NCBI GenBank assembly: GCA_963702845.1
Contig: OY969763.1
Location: 672,001 to 736,000, forward strand
Source: an uncultured Verrucomicrobiae bacterium
GTDB lineage: Bacteria; Verrucomicrobiota; Verrucomicrobiia; Limisphaerales; Palsa-1400
Direction of reading: 5' to 3'
DNA length: 64,000 nucleotides
The notes below the pieces were generated by a model, which saw nothing but the letters and a program-made list of their open reading frames with translations, was not told where the DNA came from and made no database searches. Positions 34,921 through 63,738 of the stretch are shown in pieces. The position numbers and the translations under genes were made by a program. Position 1 is the first letter of the stretch, and the number at the start of each line of letters is the position of its first letter.

Positions 34921-35147
34921 CGGTAAACCGCTGAAAACGCCGGTCGGTTTTGCGTAACAGATGCAGTTTTGGCTAAAAATTCGCCGATTCGCGGTAGTTC
35001 GCGCTAATTCGCACATGATCGCAGTGAAATGTTTTGATAGTCGCCTGCCCCATCAACTTCGCGCTTGCCGAAATCCAATAGCCGCGCAATGTTCTCGCGT
35101 GTTCAGCGCCGTGGTTTCGTTTTAGGGAAGCGCGACATCCTTTTAAA

Positions 35148-36612
35148 ATGGAGCACTATCCGAAACATTATTGCGGTGTATTTGGCGTTTACGGTCATCC
35201 AGAACGCCGCCGAACTTACGTATTACGGCCTCTACGCCTTGCAGCATCGCGGCCAGGAAAGCGCGGGCATCGTGACGAGCGACAATGGAGAGTTCCGCGA
35301 GCACAAGCGCATGGGCTTGGTGTCGCAGATTTTTAATGGCGATGTGCTGCGCGCCTTGAAAGGGCCGATGGCAGTCGGTCACGTCCGCTATTCCACGACC
35401 GGTTCGTCACATTTGCGCAATGCGCAACCGCTGACCGGTGTGATTGCAAGCGCGGCCAGATCGCGATCGCGCACAACGGTAATTTGACCAATGCGGCGCA
35501 ACTTCGCGAAGAACTCGAAGAGACCGGCGCAATTTTTCAAACCACGGTCGACAGCGAAATCATCTTACATTTGCTGGCCCAACCGTGCCTCGACGGTGCG
35601 TGAAAACAACCTGATTCAAACTGTGCGCCGGATCGAAGGCGCCTATTCGCTGGTGATCATGACCGAGCACGAGTTGATTGGCGTGCGTGATCCGCATGGC
35701 TTCCGGCCGCTGTGTTTGGGGAAGGTCGGCGATGCTTTGGTGCTCGCCAGCGAAACGTGCGCGTTTGATTTGATTTCGGCGAAGTACGTTCGCGACATCG
35801 AACCCGGTGAAATTGTTATCATCGATAAAAACGGGTTGCGGAGTATCCAGGCATTTCCCGAGCAGACGCAGCGCGCGTTTTGCATTTTTGAATACGTTTA
35901 TTTTGCGCGACCCGATAGCACGATTGCCAATCGCAACGTCTATAAGGTGCGCGTCGATATGGGACGCGAGTTGGCACGCGAGCATCCGATCGACGCAGAT
36001 ATCGTCATTCCGGTGCCCGATAGCGGCAACTGCGCGGCCTTGGGGTATTCGTTGGAATCAGGAATTCCCTTCGAGATGGCGTTTGTGCGCAATCACTACG
36101 TCGGACGCAGTTTCTTGCAGCCATCGCAACTGATTCGCGACTTCGATGTGCGCGTGAAGTTGAACTTGATCAATGAGCTTGTGCGCGGAAAACGCGTCAT
36201 CGTTGTCGACGATTCGATTGTGCGCGGAACCACGTGCAAAGCGCGCGTGAATAATTTGAAAGAAGCGGGCGCGAAAGAAGTGCACGTGTTGGTGAGCTGT
36301 CCGCCGCACATGAACCCGTGTGTTTACGGAATTGATTTTCCTGATCGAAGCAAATTGATGGCGGCGAATCATTCCTTGGACGAGATTCGCGCCTATCTCA
36401 ATGCGGATTCGCTCTCGTATCTGTCGCAGGACGGAATGGTGCGGGCGACAGGTCTTCCGCGGCATTATTTTTGCATGGCGTGTTACGACGGCAAATATCC
36501 TGTGGCGTATGATCCTTCCATCGATAAGCAAGTGATGGAGCGGCGTCGATCGAGGACAGAGGGATTGGGTTACGGCATCAACAAAGAACAGATGCAGTCG
36601 AAGTTGCTGTAA
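35148..36612 (+). CDS. purF: Amidophosphoribosyltransferase; about 3 indels (near 35190, 35439, 35600)
   Basis: [14 protein letters not shown]-terminal Cys, [51 protein letters not shown] and YGID. Confidence 0.95.
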
Positions 36613-40630: not shown

Positions 40631-40767
40631 TTCGCAGCGAATTCTCCACGAATGCGCGCCAAAAGCAAAGAGCCGTCTGCATGAGCAGCATCAAACTTTT
40701 ACACTCCCTTAACAAAACAGCTTTGCGTTTAAATAAATACTTAACAGTGCGGAATTAGCTTAGACAC

Positions 40768-42198
40768 ATGAAACCGAGCATTTCCGCAGTGTTGATGTGG
40801 TTGTTGATGTCAACCGGTTCTGCTTTCGCCGACGCGCAAATCGATAGCTGGTTTACGCGCGATTCGGGCCGATACGCGCGGATTTATCAAACGACAGCCG
40901 ATCAAACCTCTGGCACCACAGTGACGACATGGAGCCGCGGTTCGGGCGTGCAATCCGTCCCGGTCTATGTCGGCGTGCATGATGTCAGTTATTCCGCAAG
41001 TTGGGTTTACGTTCACACGAGCGGGTTGGCCAGTTATGTGATGGGGCCTTGGTACCTGAACGCCGCCAAGACGCAGCTTTTTCCAAATTACCCAGCGAAT
41101 ACAAAGACGCTTTACCGCATCCCGCGTAATCCAACGATTCCCGCGAGCAAGACACTAACCGGGCTGGGGGCAGTCGGATATTTCGTCAATGGTGTGGCGC
41201 TATTCGATAATCGCGATGCGTTTTACTGGAACGGCACGGCGGATGTATCGGGCACGGGCAACTGGAATCGCGATGCTTACGTAAACGAAGGGGTGACGTT
41301 CGACGCCGCGCTCGCGCATCAAGCCGGTGCGACGCATCACTATCACGCGAACCCGATCGCGTTGCGATATCAGCTCGGTGACCACGTTGATTTCACCGCG
41401 GCGAGCAACACCTACAAGGAGAGCGCGAACGCGCCTACGCAACATTCGCCCATCGTGGCATGGGCGCGCGATGGTTTGCCGATTTACGGGCCCTACGGTT
41501 ATTCGAATCCAACGAACTCCAGCAGCGGAGTGCGCCGAATGATTTCGGGTTTCGTAATTCGCGACGGCAACAACGGGACGCAAAATTTAATACTGACGGG
41601 AAGAACTAATCTGCCACTGTGGGCAGCCCGCGCTTACAACCGTTCGGCAACACTGTTGGCGACCGAATATGGTCCAGCCATTAGCACCACCTATCCGATG
41701 GGACGTTATATCGAGGACAACGACTATCTCGGCGATCTTGGCAAAACTTTGGGCAGTGACTTCGATTTGAACGAATACAACGCCCGTTACTCCGTGACGC
41801 CTGAATTCCCGAACGGCACATGGGCGTATTTCGTTTGCATCACGTCGAGCGGCGCGCCGGCGTATCCCTACAACATCGGTCGTGCGTTTTATGGAAATCC
41901 CACAGGCAACACGGTCACGAGCATCACCGAAAGTGTGACAACAAATTTTATTGGCGCGGCCAGCGCTGAGTTGCGGATGTCGACGCCGGTGGTGAATAAC
42001 AATGTTGTGAGTCTCGTCTGGACCGCGACCGAAGGCGGCACGTATCGGATTGAATCGAGTGGGAACCTTGTAAACTGGAGCACGAACGCGGCGGGCATCA
42101 ACGCCGTCTACAATAGCGGTTCAGCGACTGCCGCGAACACGTTCACCAACCAATCATTCCGTGTCACGCGAACTGCCCTCGCGACGTATGACAACTAA
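40768..42198 (+). CDS. Secreted YHYH-domain protein 1 (HHYH variant) with C-terminal module
   Basis: Signal peptide; VNGVALF, AHQAGATHHYHANP, HSPIVAWARDGLPIYGPYG, DLNEYNAR..TPEFPNGTWAYF and YPY. Confidence 0.85.
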   Translation: MKPSISAVLMWLLMSTGSAFADAQIDSWFTRDSGRYARIYQTTADQTSGTTVTTWSRGSGVQSVPVYVGVHDVSYSASWVYVHTSGLASYVMGPWYLNAAKTQLFPNYPANTKTLYRIPRNPTIPASKTLTGLGAVGYFVNGVALFDNRDAFYWNGTADVSGTGNWNRDAYVNEGVTFDAALAHQAGATHHYHANPIALRYQLGDHVDFTAASNTYKESANAPTQHSPIVAWARDGLPIYGPYGYSNPTNSSSGVRRMISGFVIRDGNNGTQNLILTGRTNLPLWAARAYNRSATLLATEYGPAISTTYPMGRYIEDNDYLGDLGKTLGSDFDLNEYNARYSVTPEFPNGTWAYFVCITSSGAPAYPYNIGRAFYGNPTGNTVTSITESVTTNFIGAASAELRMSTPVVNNNVVSLVWTATEGGTYRIESSGNLVNWSTNAAGINAVYNSGSATAANTFTNQSFRVTRTALATYDN

Positions 42199-42261
42199 TA
42201 CGTTTACAAAATTCTTTTTGAGCGACCAAAATTTCTTAAACTCCACACCTGCAGCATTCGT

Positions 42262-44046
42262 ATGAAAATCATTTCGCGTGTCTCTCTTATTTTGGTTCTG
42301 ACCTGTTTTAGTGCACGCATCGCGTCGGCTGACCCGCAGGTCGATTCTTGGCTCACTAAGTATTCGGGTAAATACGCGCACATTTACACGAACGACACGA
42401 TGAAGGCCAATGGCACGACAGTGACGACGTGGAGCAACGGCCAGCAAACGCAGTCGTCGCCGGCTTATTGCGGCGCGCAGCAGATTTTGACGTCCTCCAG
42501 TTACGTGTATGTGCGAAGCACTGGATTGGGCAGCCACATCATGGGCCCGTGGTGGAACAACACGGCGCATACGGTGGTGTTCGTCAATTTGCCGGCCAAT
42601 CAGAAAATGATATATCGCTTCACGCGTACGCCGACTCCGGCGACAACGCATGCCGCTGTCCAGGGAGAAGTAGGCATGATGGTCGACGGTGTGCGCATTT
42701 TCGATTCGGGTGATGCGTTTTCCTATTCGTATGCGAACAGCCAGGATGCAACGGCGGGCAATGGCCTCACAGGGGATGGCCTGTGGAATCGCGAAGCATG
42801 GTCGAACGAGGGCACGACGATGGACCCGGCCTACGCGCACCAACAAAACACTGGACGCTACCATTATCATGCCACGCCGATTGCGCTACGCTACGTGCTG
42901 GGAGACAACATCGCTTTCGATTCCGTCGCCAAGACTTACGATGAAAGCACAAATGCACCAACGAGACATTCGCCGATAATCGGTTGGATTCAGGATGGCT
43001 ATCCATTGTATGGGCCATATGGATATTCGAGCGCGTCAAACTCGAGCAGTGGCATTCGTCGTATGGTTCCCGGATATGTGAAACGCGATGGCACTGCCGG
43101 CTCGATTAATCTGACGCTTACCGGGCGCACCAATTTTCCAGCGTGGCGCGCCCGCGAGGGAAATCGCTCCGCGACACTCACAGCCAGTGAATACGGCCCG
43201 AATGTCAGCACGACGTATCCGATTGGCCACTACGAAGAAGATTACGAATACCTTGCCGACCTCGGCAAAGTGCAGGGCGTTTATTTCGACCTTGATGAAT
43301 ACAACGGACGTTGGTGCGTGACGCCGGAATTTCCCAACGGGACGTACGCGTATTTTGCAGCGATCGATGCGAGCGGCACGCCCGTGTATCCCTACAACAC
43401 GGGCAGGCAGTATTATGGGATCAACAACGGTGGCCTGGTTACTTCGATTAATGAAAGCGTAGTGACAAACTTCGACGGCGGTGCGAATGCCGCGCTCACT
43501 GTGACTGCGCCGGTCGTGAGCAATGATGTCGTTACGTTGGTGTGGGCGGCCACTGAAGGTGGCACGTATCGAGTCGAGACGAGCACAAATCTTACGACGT
43601 GGACCACGAACACGGGAAACCTTTCCGCGACGCTTAACACCGGCACGTATACGCAAGCTGCCAACGCTTCGAACATTTTTTATCGAGTCGCACGCACGAA
43701 CCTCGCGTCCTTCGACTCTGTGATTAGCACAACTAGTGGCGGGATTTTGAGCGTGTCGCCGACGAGCGGCAATCGCAGCACGACTTTCACGCTGACCATT
43801 AATCTTGATCCGAACGCGAATCCTGCGCCGCCGCCGTCGCAGGCACCGATTAACAGTGTGACCGTTGGAAGCATTACTGGAACCAGCAACGTGCACGTCA
43901 GTCAAACGCAGATGACCAGCAGCATTTCGATTCCGGCGAATGCAACGACGGGCACGCAGACGGTGACGGTCGTGTTTCCGGGGCCGCCGGACAATCCGAC
44001 AGCGACGGTTACGTATACCCTTGCGAACGGCTTTACGGTAAAATAG
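42262..44046 (+). CDS. Secreted YHYH-domain protein 2 with C-terminal module and extra IPT/TIG-like Ig domain
   Basis: Paralogue of 40768; AHQQNTGRYHYHATP, HSPIIGWIQDGYPLYGPYG and DLDEYNGR..TPEFPNGTYAYF. Tail ILSVSPTSG...LANGFTVK. Confidence 0.87.
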   Translation: MKIISRVSLILVLTCFSARIASADPQVDSWLTKYSGKYAHIYTNDTMKANGTTVTTWSNGQQTQSSPAYCGAQQILTSSSYVYVRSTGLGSHIMGPWWNNTAHTVVFVNLPANQKMIYRFTRTPTPATTHAAVQGEVGMMVDGVRIFDSGDAFSYSYANSQDATAGNGLTGDGLWNREAWSNEGTTMDPAYAHQQNTGRYHYHATPIALRYVLGDNIAFDSVAKTYDESTNAPTRHSPIIGWIQDGYPLYGPYGYSSASNSSSGIRRMVPGYVKRDGTAGSINLTLTGRTNFPAWRAREGNRSATLTASEYGPNVSTTYPIGHYEEDYEYLADLGKVQGVYFDLDEYNGRWCVTPEFPNGTYAYFAAIDASGTPVYPYNTGRQYYGINNGGLVTSINESVVTNFDGGANAALTVTAPVVSNDVVTLVWAATEGGTYRVETSTNLTTWTTNTGNLSATLNTGTYTQAANASNIFYRVARTNLASFDSVISTTSGGILSVSPTSGNRSTTFTLTINLDPNANPAPPPSQAPINSVTVGSITGTSNVHVSQTQMTSSISIPANATTGTQTVTVVFPGPPDNPTATVTYTLANGFTVK

Positions 44047-44049
44047 CAC

Positions 44050-45799
44050 ATGCGCAATCGGGTCCAACGTTTCGCGGTCGCGGTCGCGTTTATTCTCGCG
44101 GCCGCGTTGGGGCTTCGTGCCGCAACGTTGGAACTGTCGATGAACCACGTGTTCAATGGCGTTCCGCTCACGTTGAACTCGATGCAATATCGCAACGCGC
44201 GCTGACGAGGTGATGTCGGTGGAGCGCGTCAGTTATTTGCTCAGCGACATTGCTTTCGAACGGGAAGATGGAAAATGGGTACAGCTCGACGAGAAGTTTG
44301 CTTGGCTCGATGTGGAGAAGAAACGAGTTAGCGCGCGATTAGATGTGCCGAGCGGAGTCTATCGTGCGATGCGGTTTTCGGTTGGCCTCAATACGAAGGC
44401 GAATTTCAGCGACGTTACAAAATATGCGGCCGACCATCCGTTAAATCCAAATCTGAACGGGCTGCACTGGAGTTGGCAGGGTGGATACATTTTCCTCGCA
44501 CTAGAGGGACTCTATCAAACGGCGGCTACCGAACCGAAAGGGTATTCGTATCACTTCGCGCGCTCCAACAATTGCACGCCGGTGACACTCTCGGCGAATT
44601 TGGATCTGACAAAGGACGCGCGAGTCGTGGTGGATTTCGATATCGCGACGGTTCTGAACTCGCCACGTTTGCTGTCATTTGTGAAGGACGGGGCCTCGAC
44701 CCATTCACGCGATGGCGATTCGGTTGCCGCAGCGATTCGCGCGAATTTGCCGGGAGCGTTTAGAATACGACAATTTATCCAAACGTCGGACACCGCGCAG
44801 AGCGTTGCAGCTAAACCACTTTATTTGCCGAAGCAGTTCACACCTTATCGGTTCCAGATGAGCGGGATGTTTCCGATTCCGAGTTTGCCGCGCGACAATC
44901 CATTGATTGAGGAACGGGTGAGCCTCGGAGAAAAGTTGTTCAACGAGAAAGCACTATCGCGCGATGGCTCGATTTCATGCGCGTCATGCCATCAGCAGTC
45001 GGCAGCATTTTCGGATTCGCGCCGATTCAGCATTGGTGTGCGCAATCAATCCGGAACAAGGCAGGGGATGCCGTTATTCAATATGGCGTGGAAATCGAGT
45101 TTCTTCTGGGATGGGCGCGCGCCGAGTTTGCGTGCGCAGGCGTTGATGCCGATTCAGGACCATGTCGAGATGGACCAGACTCTTGAAGGCGCGGCGTCGA
45201 ATATGAACGCGCGCGCGGAGTATTTACCGCTGTTCGAAAAGGCGTTTGGCACTAAAGAAATCACTGCTGAGAAGATTGGCCTCACGATTGAACAATTTGT
45301 CCTGACGTTAACGTCATTTGATTCAAAGTTTGATCGCGTTTTGCGAGGACAGGAAAAATTTACGGAACAGGAGCAACGCGGGTTTGAATTGTTCATGACC
45401 GAATACGAGCCGCGCACCGAACACTACGGGGCTGACTGTTTCCATTGTCATGGCGGGCCGTTGTTCAGCGACTATCAGTTTCACAATAACGGGCTCGATG
45501 CCAAATCGGATTCGGACCCTGGCCGGTTTAAGTTCACGAAAATCGAGTTCGACCGCGCCAAGTTTTCAACTCCGTCCTTGCGCAACATCGCGTTGACCGC
45601 TCCGTACATGCACGACGGTCGATTTAAAACTCTCGAAGAGGTGGTGGAACATTACAGCACTGGTGTGATACGGAGTCCTACTCTGGATCCGAATATTGCC
45701 AAACACCCGGACGGCGGGATTCGTCTTTCCACGGCGGACAAACAGGCGTTGGTCGCGTTTCTGATGACTCTGACTGATCCGAAATTCGCCAAAAATTAG
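44050..45799 (+). CDS. Fused MbnP-like domain + MbnH/MauG-type di-heme cytochrome c peroxidase; one frameshift near 44200
   Basis: Signal peptide from ATG 44050 (MRNRVQRFAVAVAFILAAALG). MbnP-like LHWSWQGGYIFLALEG and YSYH. CASCH, FFWDGRA, CFHCH and TPSLRNIALTAPYMHDGRFKTLEEVVEHY. Confidence 0.85.
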
Positions 45800-45825: not shown

Positions 45826-47703
45826 TCATTTTGCCGCAGGTTCGACCGTCGGATTGAGCGGCGTTGGTTCGACTGTTTTGTCGGGCGCACCGCTCATTGC
45901 TATCAGTGTCGTAACCGCTTCGCTCAGGCTAACAACGAATGTGTCCGGTGAGACATCCGGACCTTTTTCAGTGATAAGCGTGTCATCGCGTTTTATGCCC
46001 CAGACGCCGACTACAACTTTTGTATCAGGGAATCGCGAGCGCAGTTTCTTCAACAGATATCGAGTGCGACGCAGACGCGTCGGCGGAACGGCGGAAATAC
46101 AAACCACGCGCGCCTGAATCGCAGCGACGTCTTCGACGAAATCCGCAGTGAGGCCCATTGCCGAAAGCGCACGTGCGCCAACGCCGTGCGATCGCAACAG
46201 GCACGCCAGCATCAACCCGACAATTTCGTCTGCAGCATCTCTTGCAGGCACGATCACCGCCAATTCCGGCACGGTCGGTGTTTGGAAAGCGTGTTGGCGA
46301 TCAGTGTCATCATGAACATCGGTTGCAGGGTGCGGTTCTTGGTGTTCTTCGCACAATTCTTCAACCATCTCGCGCAGGTTTTGAAATATATCGAACTCGC
46401 GATCACGCGAGATGCGGCCACGGGCGCGATCCTCTTCGATCAGCCCAAGCGAGGGTAAGATGACTTCTTCGAACAACGCTGGAAGAGGTTTCTCTTTCAT
46501 GTATTGATCGACAATTTCACTCGCTTCGTCGCGATCTCCCGCGAGCAGACGTTGATAGAACCGCGCATCAATGGTCAGCACTGGTTCATCGCTGAGAAGC
46601 ACGTGCAAGAAACCGAGCTTGCGGACATGCGCGCCGGCGACGGCTACGAAAACTGTCAGCGGAGTGGAAAGCAGCAACCCGATTGGCCCCCACAGCCAAG
46701 TCCAAAAAATGGCAGCGAGCAATAGCGCGACAGGAGAAACTCCGGTCTGCGACCCATAGACAAGCGGTTCAATGATATTTGCGGTGGTCAGTTCCGCGCT
46801 GCAGTAGAGACCCGCCGTCCAAAGAAATTTTGTCCAGCCTGGGTCAATTGCGAATGCAAGCGCAAGGGGCGTTGCTGCCGCGATCCAGACGCCGACGTAG
46901 GGAACAAACCGCAGCAATGTTGCCATTGCGCCCCACAACATCGGACTCGGGACGCCGATGAAATAAAGCCCTGTCCCGATAAGCGTGCCAAGGCACAAAT
47001 TGACCAGCAGTTCAAAGAGCAAATATCGGCTTACTCTGTCGGCTGTTTCATTGAGAGTGTCGACTGTTAAGTTCATGCGCTCCGTGCCAGCCAGTCTGAC
47101 GATGCGGTCGCGCATGTCTTCGCGATAGCTCAGCATAAACGAAAGCACAAACAGGATCATGAAAACACTGAGCAGTGGCTTCATGCCTGTGCCGACCATC
47201 GTCTTGACCAATGTCAGTGGACCGGCCTGCGGATTCTGAATCTCCACTGGTACCGGCGTAGCCTCAGAGGGTTCTTTCAAGTTGCTCGACTGTGTGCCCG
47301 TCTTGTTGTCAGGGGACTGGAGTTGACGGCTGCTATGTTTGATCAAACGATTTACCCGTGCGATGGGTCCTTGTGTTTGCGACGCAATGCTAGTGAATTT
47401 TGTTTCGATCGTTTGTTGGTATTGAGGCAGTTTCTTTGCAAGATCGTAAAATTGCGCTCCGACCAGCCAGCCGATCGCGCCGACGATGCATAGCGCGAGC
47501 AAAATAGTGGTAAAGACAGCAATGCCCCGTGGTAAGTGGAGGCGTTCCAGCCACGCGCAGGGCATCGTGAGCAGGAAACTCAGCAACACTGCGACCGAGA
47601 GGGGAATGAGAACTTCGCGCGCGAAATAAAGACCGGCAATTACCAAAGCCACGCCAAACAGGGCGTTCGAACTGATTTTAGCGTAGTCGTTGCCGCGGTA
47701 CAC
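45826..47703 (-). CDS. AI-2E family transporter with C-terminal cytoplasmic Rossmann-like domain
   Basis: REVLIPLSVAVLLSFLL, LRFVPYVG, IEPLVYG and FWTWLWGPIGLLLSTPLT; C-terminal RDAADE..VVCISAVPP. Confidence 0.88.
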   Translation of the reverse strand: MYRGNDYAKISSNALFGVALVIAGLYFAREVLIPLSVAVLLSFLLTMPCAWLERLHLPRGIAVFTTILLALCIVGAIGWLVGAQFYDLAKKLPQYQQTIETKFTSIASQTQGPIARVNRLIKHSSRQLQSPDNKTGTQSSNLKEPSEATPVPVEIQNPQAGPLTLVKTMVGTGMKPLLSVFMILFVLSFMLSYREDMRDRIVRLAGTERMNLTVDTLNETADRVSRYLLFELLVNLCLGTLIGTGLYFIGVPSPMLWGAMATLLRFVPYVGVWIAAATPLALAFAIDPGWTKFLWTAGLYCSAELTTANIIEPLVYGSQTGVSPVALLLAAIFWTWLWGPIGLLLSTPLTVFVAVAGAHVRKLGFLHVLLSDEPVLTIDARFYQRLLAGDRDEASEIVDQYMKEKPLPALFEEVILPSLGLIEEDRARGRISRDREFDIFQNLREMVEELCEEHQEPHPATDVHDDTDRQHAFQTPTVPELAVIVPARDAADEIVGLMLACLLRSHGVGARALSAMGLTADFVEDVAAIQARVVCISAVPPTRLRRTRYLLKKLRSRFPDTKVVVGVWGIKRDDTLITEKGPDVSPDTFVVSLSEAVTTLIAMSGAPDKTVEPTPLNPTVEPAAK

Positions 47704-48311: not shown

Positions 48312-48901
48312 AGGTCTTGTAAATAGAGGCGGCGATTGCGCCAGAGATAAATGCTGCCGGAGGTGAAGGTCAGGATGATCGCTGCCCAAACCGAGATGCT
48401 GGTAAACCAAACAATCCATGGTTGGCCGGCGATCTGCCAGCCGACGACGACTTCGCCGAATTTACCCCAATGACTATATCCTTGCATCACGAGCAACGCG
48501 AGAATCGCGATCATTTGCGAAATCGTTTTGTGTTTGCCAAATCTTTCCGCCGCAAGAACGACGTGTTGTGATGCGGCGAGCAAGCGCAAACCCGTGATGG
48601 CTAGTTCACGCGAGACGACCACCACAACCATCCACGCCGGAATCCAACCGTGGCCGACAAATGCAATGAACGCCGAACAGACAAGAATTTTGTCTGCCAA
48701 CGGATCCATCAGAATGCCGAAATTAGTGATGAGCTTGTCGCGCCGGGCGATCATGCCATCGAAGTAATCGGTAATACTGGCAGCGCTAAAGAGGAACAAG
48801 GCGACGGTGTCGCGCCATGGATTTGGATCCAAAAAAATGACGAAAAGGAAAGCTAACGTCAGGACCAGGCGAGACAGCGTTAGTTTGTTGGGTAGATTCA
48901 T
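48308..48901 (-). CDS. pgsA: CDP-diacylglycerol--glycerol-3-phosphate 3-phosphatidyltransferase
   Basis: MNLPNKLTLSR and TDYFDGMIARR..TNFGILMDPLADK. Confidence 0.95.
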   Translation of the reverse strand: MNLPNKLTLSRLVLTLAFLFVIFLDPNPWRDTVALFLFSAASITDYFDGMIARRDKLITNFGILMDPLADKILVCSAFIAFVGHGWIPAWMVVVVVSRELAITGLRLLAASQHVVLAAERFGKHKTISQMIAILALLVMQGYSHWGKFGEVVVGWQIAGQPWIVWFTSISVWAAIILTFTSGSIYLWRNRRLYLQDL

Positions 48902-50518
48902 TCAGCGATCAGATCGTAATCTGTATGGCCGATGATCTTAACCTCAGCAAACTGGCCGGCCGGCAGATGGCGTTTGATATACACACGACCATCAATATCT
49001 GGCGCATCCGCCTCACCTCGCGCAACTACAAACTTTGACCCGAGCTTCATTTCCAATTCGCCGCCGCTGCCGCGAATCAACCCATGTTCCCACGAACTAA
49101 CGTTCGCCTTCTGCAAAGCGTCCGCTGTCGCCTCACCTTCACAGAGAACCTTCAGTTTGTGACCGACGAATGATTGAGAAATTTCACACGCGATTTTTTG
49201 CTGCTCTGCCATCGCGAGTTTCTGGCGCTGAAACTTAATCTTATCCGGAATTTGCCCTTCCATCTTGCCGGCGCGCGTGCCGTCCTGTTGCGAGTAGGTA
49301 AATACGCCAAGACGTTCGAAACGCGTTGTGCGAATAAAATCGAGCAATGTCTGGAAATACGCATCCGTTTCGCCCGGGAATCCGACGATAAATGTCGTGC
49401 GAATCGCAATGCCCGGAATACCGGCGCGGATTTTCGCGATGAGATCGACAATATATTGCTGCGACGTTTCGCGGCGCATGCGTTCCAGCATGTTCCCGTG
49501 AATATGCTGTAGCGGAATATCAATATAGCGCGCGACCTTCGGACATTCCGCAATCGTCTTGATCAACTCGTCAGTCCAATGCGCCGGGTGCGTGTAGAGC
49601 AGGCGAATCCAAAAATTACCGGGAATTTTATTTAATTCCCGGAGCAAAGTGCAGAGCGTCGTCGCATCCGAAGGCAACGAATGTGCCGCTGCAGAAAATT
49701 TTTCAGGTGAAGAAATCGCGCGGCTATGATTCGCGCGCAGGTCCAATCCGTAATAAGTCGAATCCTGCGAAATCAAATTGAGTTCTTTGACGCCATCGGC
49801 GACGAGCGCCTTGGCTTCCGCAACAACATCAGCCTGGGTGCGACTACGATGCGATCCTCGCATGCGCGGGATAATGCAAAACGTGCACGGGTGATTGCAC
49901 CCTTCCGCAATTTTGACGTAAGCAAAATGTTTTGGCGTCAGACGAAAACGCGGCGTCTCAAAATCCTGCACGTAAATAGGCCGCGCGTTTACTTCGATCA
50001 ACGGCGCGCTCGCCTCTTGTTCTGGCTTGAATGGCAAAGTCCGCTTTTTCTTTGAACCTTGGACGTTGGATGTTGGATGTTCGACGTTTGCCTTCGTCTT
50101 TGTCCTCCTTCAGTTCCAAGGCAGCCCTAACAATCTGCGGTGCCTGCGCCACTTGATCGATGCCCATGAACGCGTCCACTTCCGGCAGCAACGTCGGCAG
50201 CTCTTCGCGAAACCGTTGCGGCAAGCAGCCCGAAACGATCAGCCCCTGGTGCGGCTTGCGTTGGTTGCGCAATTCATCCGACTCCAAAATCGCGTCGATG
50301 CTTTCCTGTTGCGCCGATTCAATGAAGGAACAGGTATTAACAATAACCACGTCCGCCTCACTCGCTTCATTGGTGATTTGAATGCCGTCCTTCAACAGCG
50401 AGCCGAGCATGATTTCGGCGTCCACAAGATTCTTGGCGCAACCAAGGGAAATTAATCCGACGCGAATCGGTTTGGCGTTGCGTGTTTCGGTGCTTTTAAC
50501 TTTTTGTTCGGGCTTCAC
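48898..50518 (-). CDS. rimO: Ribosomal protein uS12 methylthiotransferase; frameshift within about 50035-50110
   Basis: SLGCAKNLVDAE, NTCSFI, SGCLPQR, radical-SAM CNHPCTFC and DAPDIDG TRAM domain. Confidence 0.93.
50059..50086. repeat. Four tandem heptamers inside rimO
   Basis: TTGGACG TTGGATG TTGGATG TTCGACG. Confidence 0.8.
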
Positions 50519-62237: not shown

Positions 62238-63738
62238 ATGTCGCAGGGTTTACATTTATCGCAGAAAATGTCGCTGTCGCAGGTGCTCGCACCGCAACTG
62301 CAACAATCCCTCGCGCTGCTGCAAGCCCCGACCCTCGAACTCAAAGCGCTCGTTGAACAAGAACTTCAACAAAACCCGGTGCTCGAAGAAGTTTCCGCCG
62401 CTGAAATTGAGCAGAGCGATAAAATCCGCGACGACGGCGCGCCGGCTCACGACGCTTCAGATCCAGCCGAACCGCCGGCCGATACAAAATTTGATCCTGC
62501 GACCGAAAAGCCGCAGGAGGGACCGGTAGATGATTTTCAGGCCGAGTTCGAAAAGCTCACGCAGATGGACCAGGAATGGCGCGATCATTTTTCCGCCACC
62601 AACCTTCCGATGCGCCAGAGCCAGGAAGACCGAGGAGCGTCGCCAGTTCATGTTCGATTCGCTCGTCGCTGGAACATCGCTCCAGGAAAGCCTCTTGGAG
62701 CAAATGCGGTTCTCCGATTTGGACGAGGGCCACCGGTCGATTGCCGAAATGATCATCGGCAACATCGACGATTACGGTTATCTCAAAGCCAGCATCGACG
62801 AACTTTCGTTCTCAACAAACATTCCGGCGGACAAGATTTTGAACCGTCCTGAAAGTCATCCAGACTTTCCACCCGCCCGGAGTTGGTTGTCGTGATTTGC
62901 GCGAGTGCCTCATGTTGCAGCTGGAGCGCGCGGGCAAAGAAAAGACGCTCGAATACCGGATCATACGCGATTGCATGGAAGCGCTAACCAAGCGCAAGCT
63001 CCCCGAAATCGCACGCGCAGTCGGCGGCATGTTGACCAAGTGCAGGATGCCGTCGGCCGCATCGCGATGCTCGAACCACGTCCGGGCCGCGAATTCCTCC
63101 CTGACAACGACCGTTACATTTCGCCCGAAGTATTCGTCGTTAAGGTCGGCGAAGATTTTGTCGTCACCACGAATAACGAGCAAATTCCGCATCTCCGCAT
63201 CAGCAACACTTACAAAGATCTGATGTCGCAAGGCGATGCCACGAACGAAGTGCGCGATTATATCCGCGACAAAATTCGCGCCGGAAAATTTCTCATCAAA
63301 AGTTTGCAGCAACGCCAGCAAACCATCCTGAATATCGGCAACGAAATCGTGAAACGTCAGCGCGAGTTCATGGAAAAAGGCGTCGCGCATCTTAAGCCGA
63401 TGACGATGGTGCAGATTGCCGAAGTGGTCGGCGTTCACGAAACCACGGTCAGCCGCGCCGTTTCGAACAAATACATGCAAACGCCTCAAGGCGTGTTCGA
63501 AATGAAATATTTCTTCACGTCGGGCATCAAGACCGACAGCGGCGATGGCGTTTCCAACACCAGCGTTAAAGACATGGTGGCGGAAATGTTCAAGAGCGAA
63601 AACTCGGCAAAGCCTTTGTCCGATCAGGAAATCGTGAAGATGCTCAAAGAAAAAGGCATCGTCATCGCCCGCCGCACTGTCGCCAAATATCGCGACGAGT
63701 TGAATATCCTCCCGTCGAATCTTCGCAAGAAGTACTAG
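62238..63738 (+). CDS. rpoN: RNA polymerase sigma-54 factor; about 3 frameshifts (near 62632, 62845, 63030)
   Basis: LAPQLQQSLALLQ, NPVLE, IGNIDDYGYL, HETTVSRA and RpoN box ARRTVAKYR. Confidence 0.96.

Follow-up and report, generated by a model that had tools for sequence, protein, structure and literature searches.

A fused MbnP-MbnH gene linked to YHYH genes in Verrucomicrobiota: a candidate metal-supply module

Introduction

Why should a gene for an MbnP-like protein, fused to that for its di-haem partner MbnH, lie a few bases behind two genes for YHYH proteins? This arrangement is found in a stretch of 64,000 nucleotides (the window) from an uncultured Verrucomicrobiae bacterium of the lineage Palsa-1400 (assembly GCA_963702845.1, contig OY969763.1, positions 672,001 to 736,000), whose genome of 6.03 Mb is assembled as one contig with a completeness of 89.8%. 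An initial annotation, made from the letters of the window alone, proposed a new copper and tryptophan-modification system in which the YHYH proteins are either loaded with copper by the fused protein or serve as further substrates of its oxidative chemistry.

To call the system new overstates the case, since MbnP/MbnH is already a described pair; the module is a new variant of it and a good lead for YHYH. The pair of M. trichosporium OB3b (7L6G, 6E1C; TIGR04052, TIGR04039; GenProp0940) likewise has a WxW domain, and a di-haem domain that holds two CxxCH motifs. Deletion of mbnP or mbnH leaves copper-bound methanobactin, which indicates a role in copper release or uptake according to the portion available of the source (PMC13729199). 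For YHYH, the accessible part of a 2026 preprint reports a family without metal-binding or enzymatic characterisation (10.64898/2026.10.18.759936). No publication joining YHYH and MbnH was found among the full-text matches listed, a search that did not cover the primary MbnH/MbnP papers of 2019, 2021 and 2023, which may list YHYH neighbours.

Linkage of YHYH and MbnP-MbnH

As first described, the three genes are co-oriented and separated by 63 nt (42199-42261) and 3 nt (44047-44049); this spacing makes their co-transcription as an operon likely. Signal peptides of all three products were judged by eye.

40768..42198, + strand: YHYH-1, 476 aa; signal peptide, long-type core and C-terminal beta-sandwich tail; PF14240
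42262..44046, + strand: YHYH-2, 594 aa; core and tail as in YHYH-1, then about 110 extra C-terminal residues; PF14240
44050..45799, + strand: the fused MbnP-MbnH gene

Studies of related genomes reveal that this neighbourhood is no peculiarity of one assembly. Among 30 other genomes of the family, MbnP occurs in 7, YHYH in 8 and neither in 22. All seven MbnP genomes carry a long YHYH, the subtype set apart by a pair of insertions, a fourth conserved His and a tail at the C-terminus; the two genes are adjacent in six, the pair of the seventh (G009) lies on separate contigs, and the eighth YHYH (G012) is interrupted by a contig end. Across 300 genomes of the phylum, YHYH was found in 17 and MbnP in 9, and these nine are the very genomes that hold long YHYH, with adjacency in eight, two of the adjacent loci being themselves fragmented. 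A protein-led scan of 35 loci, three of them duplicates of family loci, found MbnP or MbnH in 22 and neither in 10, the other three being cut inside YHYH by contig ends. The sampled genomes are related and hence not independent, and no p-value is given. The adjacency on which the initial annotation had staked its proposal is conserved in other genomes, and the linkage is almost certainly real. Overall, the cluster is a real, conserved and likely regulated module.

The conserved arrangement, together with a repeat upstream of the operon, would make the fused protein a likely source of metal for YHYH. The fuller form of this reading, drawn from sequence comparison, is that the fused MbnP-MbnH may be a self-maturing supplier of metal, probably copper, to two surface YHYH proteins that are predicted metalloenzymes; we favour it tentatively and with rather less than even confidence.

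The fused MbnP-MbnH protein

What kind of protein is the third product? Its parts are as follows.

44050..44205, + strand: 5' part of MbnP-MbnH, with start codon, signal peptide and first MbnP residues; aligns with the beginning of the unbroken gene of relatives
44195..44202, + strand: frameshift, one base extra near 44197-44200 relative to two same-genus relatives
44210..44779, + strand: MbnP-like domain, PF20243, containing WSW (44468-44476) and a pair of invariant His
44822..45799, + strand: MbnH/MauG-type di-haem domain, PF03150, best PDB match 6E1C
CASCH 44978-44992, Trp of FFWDGR 45107, CFHCH 45437-45451 and Tyr 45653-45655, + strand: di-haem landmarks, invariant in 30 sequences

The di-haem assignment is well founded: the domain contains CASCH, CFHCH and FFWDGR as had been claimed, scores 177.5 bits against PF03150 (cut-off 25.6) with its two CxxCH motifs, and has MbnH (6E1C) as its best PDB match at E 2e-45, with bacterial cytochrome c peroxidases and MauG ranking below it. 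W300 aligns with the inter-haem Trp of 6E1C and Y482 with its residue 312, and both are invariant among the 30 sequences; we take Tyr312 of 6E1C to be the distal ligand of the second haem. The NCBIfam model TIGR04039 is missed (232.9 bits against a cut-off of 362.85), yet it is the best-scoring model of that collection. The N-terminal domain, too, proved to be MbnP-like, with LHWSWQGGYIF present and 95.5 bits against PF20243 (cut-off 27). Across 29 fused MbnP domains, two Trp, two His and one Asp are invariant, the WxW motif included, and this motif aligns with that of 7L6G in a match that is itself weak, at E 0.046.

The description of the third gene as one exported polypeptide overlooked a frameshift. 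The frame from the ATG at 44050 ends at the TGA of 44203-44205 and MbnP-MbnH resumes in the next frame, so that the extra base parts the signal peptide from the remainder of the protein. Could the gene be a recent, true pseudogene and the module partly dead? The frameshift is present in the sequence and no read spans the site (one DNA run, share 0.08, whose three contigs miss it). However, the invariant residues are all intact, an unbroken relative shares 86% identity with the gene, and a tblastn test detects frameshifts in 10 of the 97 gene entries checked in this assembly, two entries being the same gene. In the window itself (35065-36612, 48898-50518 and 62238-62849), purF and rimO each occur as two open reading frames and rpoN ends at 204 aa. 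Given the split purF and rimO and the frequency of frameshifts assembly-wide, the extra base is likely an assembly error; a pseudogene, a matter independent of the mechanism, is improbable.

The YHYH proteins

Both YHYH proteins pass the threshold of PF14240 (113.6 bits for YHYH-1 and 136.3 bits for YHYH-2; cut-off 25) and are identical at 260 of 481 aligned residues (54%), in keeping with the exported paralogous pair of the initial annotation, and the His-rich motifs it listed are all found in the sequence. Family membership is further borne out by the His triad and Asp. The core residues of YHYH-1 are D179, H184, H191, H193 and H226; in an alignment of 146 YHYH sequences D179, H193 and H226 are invariant, while H184 and H191 occur in 145. 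Aligning 23 sequences of all three subtypes reveals that the Asp and three His are common to every subtype and that H226 is mostly restricted to the long one, the subtype that tracks MbnP-MbnH. In a quick tree, YHYH-1 and YHYH-2 fall into separate subclades, each of which holds members standing alone before MbnP-MbnH, and the two are therefore not the outcome of a recent duplication.

AlphaFold2 predicts YHYH-1 with a mean local distance difference score (pLDDT) of 97.5 and a template-modelling score (pTM) of 0.94. Sequence searches against the PDB gave zero matches at E <= 10, and a wide fold search over 48,161 chains returned nothing at Z >= 8, a search with a 455-residue query in which the YHYH core was barely probed. 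All 50 matches listed fell on the C-terminal tail (about residues 400-474 of YHYH-1) and were FnIII/Ig sandwiches, with Z up to 7.7. The tail module (window 41971-42186 in YHYH-1 and 43495-43707 in YHYH-2) comprises about 65 residues with a FYRV-like ending and has no Pfam match in the window proteins. About 40 further proteins of the genome carry it, in most cases within a few residues of the C-terminus, and many of them have a signal-like N-terminus; we infer a candidate verrucomicrobial sorting domain.

It was also suggested at first that YHYH is itself a substrate of the di-haem enzyme. MauG oxidises residues of methylamine dehydrogenase to build its cofactor, and by analogy MbnH might oxidise a Trp or Tyr of YHYH into a cofactor; the features that MbnH shares with MauG are intact, and YHYH has a conserved W166 (145 of 146 sequences) along with highly conserved Met residues. 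However, neither YHYH protein contains WxW, and MbnH is already fused to a partner that does. W166 is found in short YHYH as well, W285 in the long type of Planctomycetota, where no MbnP was found, and among the 23 sequences no Trp is confined to the YHYH proteins linked to MbnP-MbnH. A second substrate is thus very improbable, and the comparison lent the suggestion no support.

Fusion partners and the possible direction of metal flow

Do the relatives hint at what YHYH does? A single sulfatase subfamily of the Cys type recurs among the 70 loci searched, fused to YHYH in 14 and following MbnP-MbnH in 5 (these 19 include L043, L044, L045, L046, L065, L066, L072 and L074); the present genome has no close member of it, the best match reaching 125 bits. 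Multicopper-oxidase domains are fused to long YHYH in two loci (L047:7667-17354 and L073:489-6599), and in both loci a CusB-like gene bearing a heavy-metal-binding domain follows; of 30 long-YHYH representatives picked by hand from 150, 2 carry such oxidase domains. The first of these also has AcrB/CusA-family genes downstream and multihaem cytochrome genes upstream. Further fusions involve Ig, cadherin and Calx-beta domains and additional YHYH cores. Partners of these kinds agree with an enzyme at the cell surface, and they hint modestly at copper.

The surroundings of the locus bear on whether metal might flow the other way. The closest TonB-receptor match lies about 70 kb off, with none inside the window, and a search of the whole genome (89.8% complete) gave zero matches to the MbnB family (PF05114); the initial annotation was right that the locus lacks a TonB receptor and mbnABC. 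The clustering of mbnA, mbnB and mbnC with a TonB-dependent transporter that marks a methanobactin operon is absent, and where the OB3b pair is partnered by methanobactin genes or a TonB receptor, the partner here is YHYH. It could be supposed that YHYH is a surface metal scavenger, taking the role of methanobactin or of MopE/CorA, and that MbnP-MbnH strips its copper for uptake. The tie of MbnP-MbnH to methanobactin copper release and the want of an MbnB match would suit this idea, as would the precedent of MopE/SACCP and CorA/CorB of gammaproteobacterial methanotrophs. In the parts of the sources available, MopE and CorA, copper proteins that are either secreted or located at the surface, each come with a di-haem enzyme (PMC3621798), and MopE/SACCP and CorA/CorB have a kynurenine copper site (PMC3621798, PMC11951088). 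The present module resembles them in encoding a secreted or surface protein with a di-haem enzyme, but there the partner bears the kynurenine, whereas here WxW lies in the fused MbnP and YHYH has no PDB sequence match. The missing TonB receptor speaks against uptake, and the occurrence of YHYH cores in phage baseplate proteins and in fusions of the adhesin, sulfatase and oxidase kinds fits an enzyme better than a carrier. We consider such a reversed flow unlikely.

The promoter repeat and its candidate regulator

A direct repeat upstream of the YHYH operon is a feature new in this analysis.

40698..40714, + strand: direct repeat TTTACA-N5-TTAACA (type A), a predicted site of an OmpR-family response regulator

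It is the sole match in the window, where 0.04 is expected and 4 of 100 shuffles contain one, and it is conserved upstream of YHYH in relatives, whose upstream regions carry two repeat types, A and B. Scans for sigma-70 promoters and terminators gave results no better than chance. A matrix built from 9 sites of other genomes finds 6 matches of at least 15 bits in this genome; three training sites are same-genus orthologues of the two YHYH matches, which makes those two partly circular and leaves the others free of this. The strict pattern of box A has 4 matches in the genome against 0-1 in 5 shuffles. By this sequence evidence, the type-A repeat may mark about five promoters. The six matches stand before:

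this operon
the third YHYH gene of the genome
an EF-hand gene, oriented divergently to a two-component pair
a PQQ-type beta-propeller gene, with a weakly LTXXQ-like gene behind it
a PqqD-like gene
one weak match

Which protein might read this site? A candidate regulator is encoded at C1:1098853-1099599 and is 68-74% identical to those beside YHYH and MbnP-MbnH in L050, L065, L083 and L087; the response regulators next to the module in relatives are its orthologues, and one box-A promoter adjoins its gene. All five YHYH genes whose locus contains a type-A regulator have box A and all eight with a type-B regulator have box B, so that box and regulator agree in 13 of 13, with patterns for both boxes written by eye from the scored sequences themselves. 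Of the 47 YHYH genes scored, 10 more have a box with no regulator nearby and 24 have neither. The type-B kinase is nearest to a heavy-metal sensor model, below its cut-off, and the type-B regulator pair has no close orthologue in this genome (best 30-50% identity). Loss of regulation here, considered on account of this missing orthologue, was rejected, the type-A pair being present. As to co-regulation of YHYH and MbnP-MbnH, which had been part of the earlier proposal, the conserved upstream repeat lends it some support as a predicted shared control site.

OmpR-family sites often resemble one another. Box A shares the core TTAC-N6-TTAA with the UzcR site of Caulobacter crescentus, given as CATTAC-N6-TTAA in the part of the source available (PMC8963506), and differs from it in the first two bases; the UzcRS regulon responds to U, Zn and Cu, and its members, like those of the putative regulon here, are mainly exported proteins. 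The likeness, drawn on the site sequence alone, is a lead only.

The other genes behind box A deserve a brief description. The strongest site in this genome (L105:10843-11079, C1 about 4727000) precedes a lone PqqD-family gene of 79 aa, with a secreted GH25 protein carrying Ig/cadherin domains downstream. In L106:2106-5092 and L107:6288-8014, the products of the box-A genes are an EF-hand protein rich in Gly and Pro, a propeller of the PQQ type and a small LTXXQ-like protein. The YHYH/MbnP-MbnH cluster of L066 includes an EF-hand gene and also an orthologue of the propeller gene, which follows MbnP-MbnH there.

A proposed mechanism and its weighing

Taken stepwise, the metal-supply reading would run as follows. 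A two-component system of the envelope-stress or metal type, encoded elsewhere, may bind 40698-40714 and turn the operon on. After export and haem attachment, MbnH with peroxide would oxidise a Trp of WSW to kynurenine and so form a copper site, as suggested by the biochemistry of MbnP/MbnH. In the periplasm, MbnP could then hand its metal over to the YHYH cluster D179/H184/H191/H193(/H226). The tail would finally place YHYH on the cell surface. Its target there may be an extracellular polymer, and in many relatives a sulfatase, either fused to YHYH or encoded next to it, would perhaps share in this activity.

Several observations weigh against this reading. With respect to the fused protein, the window's shortened form misses the equivalog cut-off of TIGR04052 (35.2 bits against 140), an intact relative gave no match to that model at E <= 1e-15, and a profile built from the 29 fused MbnP domains retrieved nothing from the PDB at E <= 1. 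The same 29 domains contain no conserved Met, unlike the His and Met ligands of 7L6G, and lack its four-Cys motif, having 0-3 Cys each, none conserved. The solved copper ligands of MbnP are His, Met, kynurenine and water in the part of the source available (PMC11951088), and the ligand set of the fused domains must therefore differ. In short, the present protein departs from the OB3b pair in being one fused gene, in having an MbnP part without conserved Met or Cys, and in falling below both NCBIfam cut-offs; judging by its sequence, it likely works like MbnP with an altered site. With respect to YHYH, 26 of 201 Planctomycetota genomes carry it and none of the 201 carries MbnP; in two Planctomycetota genomes (G332 and G335, completeness not given) the YHYH is of the long type without an MbnP match, and in the present genome a third YHYH at C1:4.14 Mb lies far from MbnP-MbnH. 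The portions of two sources available predict zinc: a Zn hydrolase with a His-triad and Asp site for YHYH on phage tails (PMC7824862) and a His3 Zn site for a PF14240 protein (10.64898/2026.10.18.759936). Moreover, the type-A regulator and kinase are nearest to OmpR/CpxR and BaeS/CpxA rather than to heavy-metal models, all below cut-off, and a shared regulator alone would explain the linkage without any hand-over.

Much of this could be accommodated if the genes were parallel members of one stress regulon under a single two-component system, with YHYH a hydrolase of zinc or another non-copper metal and MbnP-MbnH in a separate copper or peroxide role. The zinc predictions, the occurrence of YHYH without MbnP in Planctomycetota, and the same repeat before unrelated genes (EF-hand, beta-propeller, PqqD-like) all agree with it. 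The other members of such a regulon are, however, scattered in this genome and do not lie beside the module in most loci, whereas in most loci no more than a few bases separate YHYH from MbnP-MbnH, and the two occur together in the same nine of the 300 genomes; and predictions based on structure may confuse Zn with Cu. A parallel regulon is a serious possibility, if a doubtful one. Returning to the metal-supply reading, its most specific form, in which YHYH proteins would be an undescribed family of surface copper enzymes lacking any structural relative among solved proteins and MbnP-MbnH their dedicated self-maturing chaperone with a Met-free kynurenine/His site, is speculative to a similar degree.

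If this form were borne out, MbnP/MbnH would gain a protein client outside methanobactin biology, and a function would emerge for a domain also found in diatoms and cyanophage baseplates. The locus links the widespread MbnP/MbnH pairs to YHYH and names residues to mutate. The fused gene offers enzyme and substrate in a single chain, easily expressed from an intact relative, and the promoter repeat with its candidate regulator provides a handle on the inducing signal.

Wider distribution and neighbouring genes

In a Sumerlaeota locus (L090:8077-9983), MbnP and MbnH follow YHYH as two open reading frames, and fusion may thus not be required. Deinococcus radiodurans, taken as a control genome, has MbnP and lacks YHYH. 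On plasmids, 2 and 9 YHYH records were found, and the three regions read contain no annotated MbnP/MbnH. Four loci (L077, L079, L081 and L097) are titled Binatia, Akkermansia muciniphila, Bifidobacteriaceae and Yoonia, yet their genes are of verrucomicrobial type; the titles or bins may be wrong, and sampling by way of the genome of L097 led to the Verrucomicrobiota sample.

Short YHYH is matched by 459 phage records, nearly all from cyanophages, in structural or baseplate genes (H3-H27). These baseplate proteins share the three His and Asp with the proteins of the window, which differ in being of the long type. A blue-copper domain was not confirmed in the one phage YHYH protein inspected (AIR93427, first 3015 residues). 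YHYH transcripts are reported from diatoms in the part of the source available (10.1101/2024.06.08.598090).

Convergent with the operon, window 45826-47703 encodes an AI-2E family transporter with a C-terminal domain resembling B12-binding domains, and a gene resembling this transporter also lies near the YHYH locus of L032.

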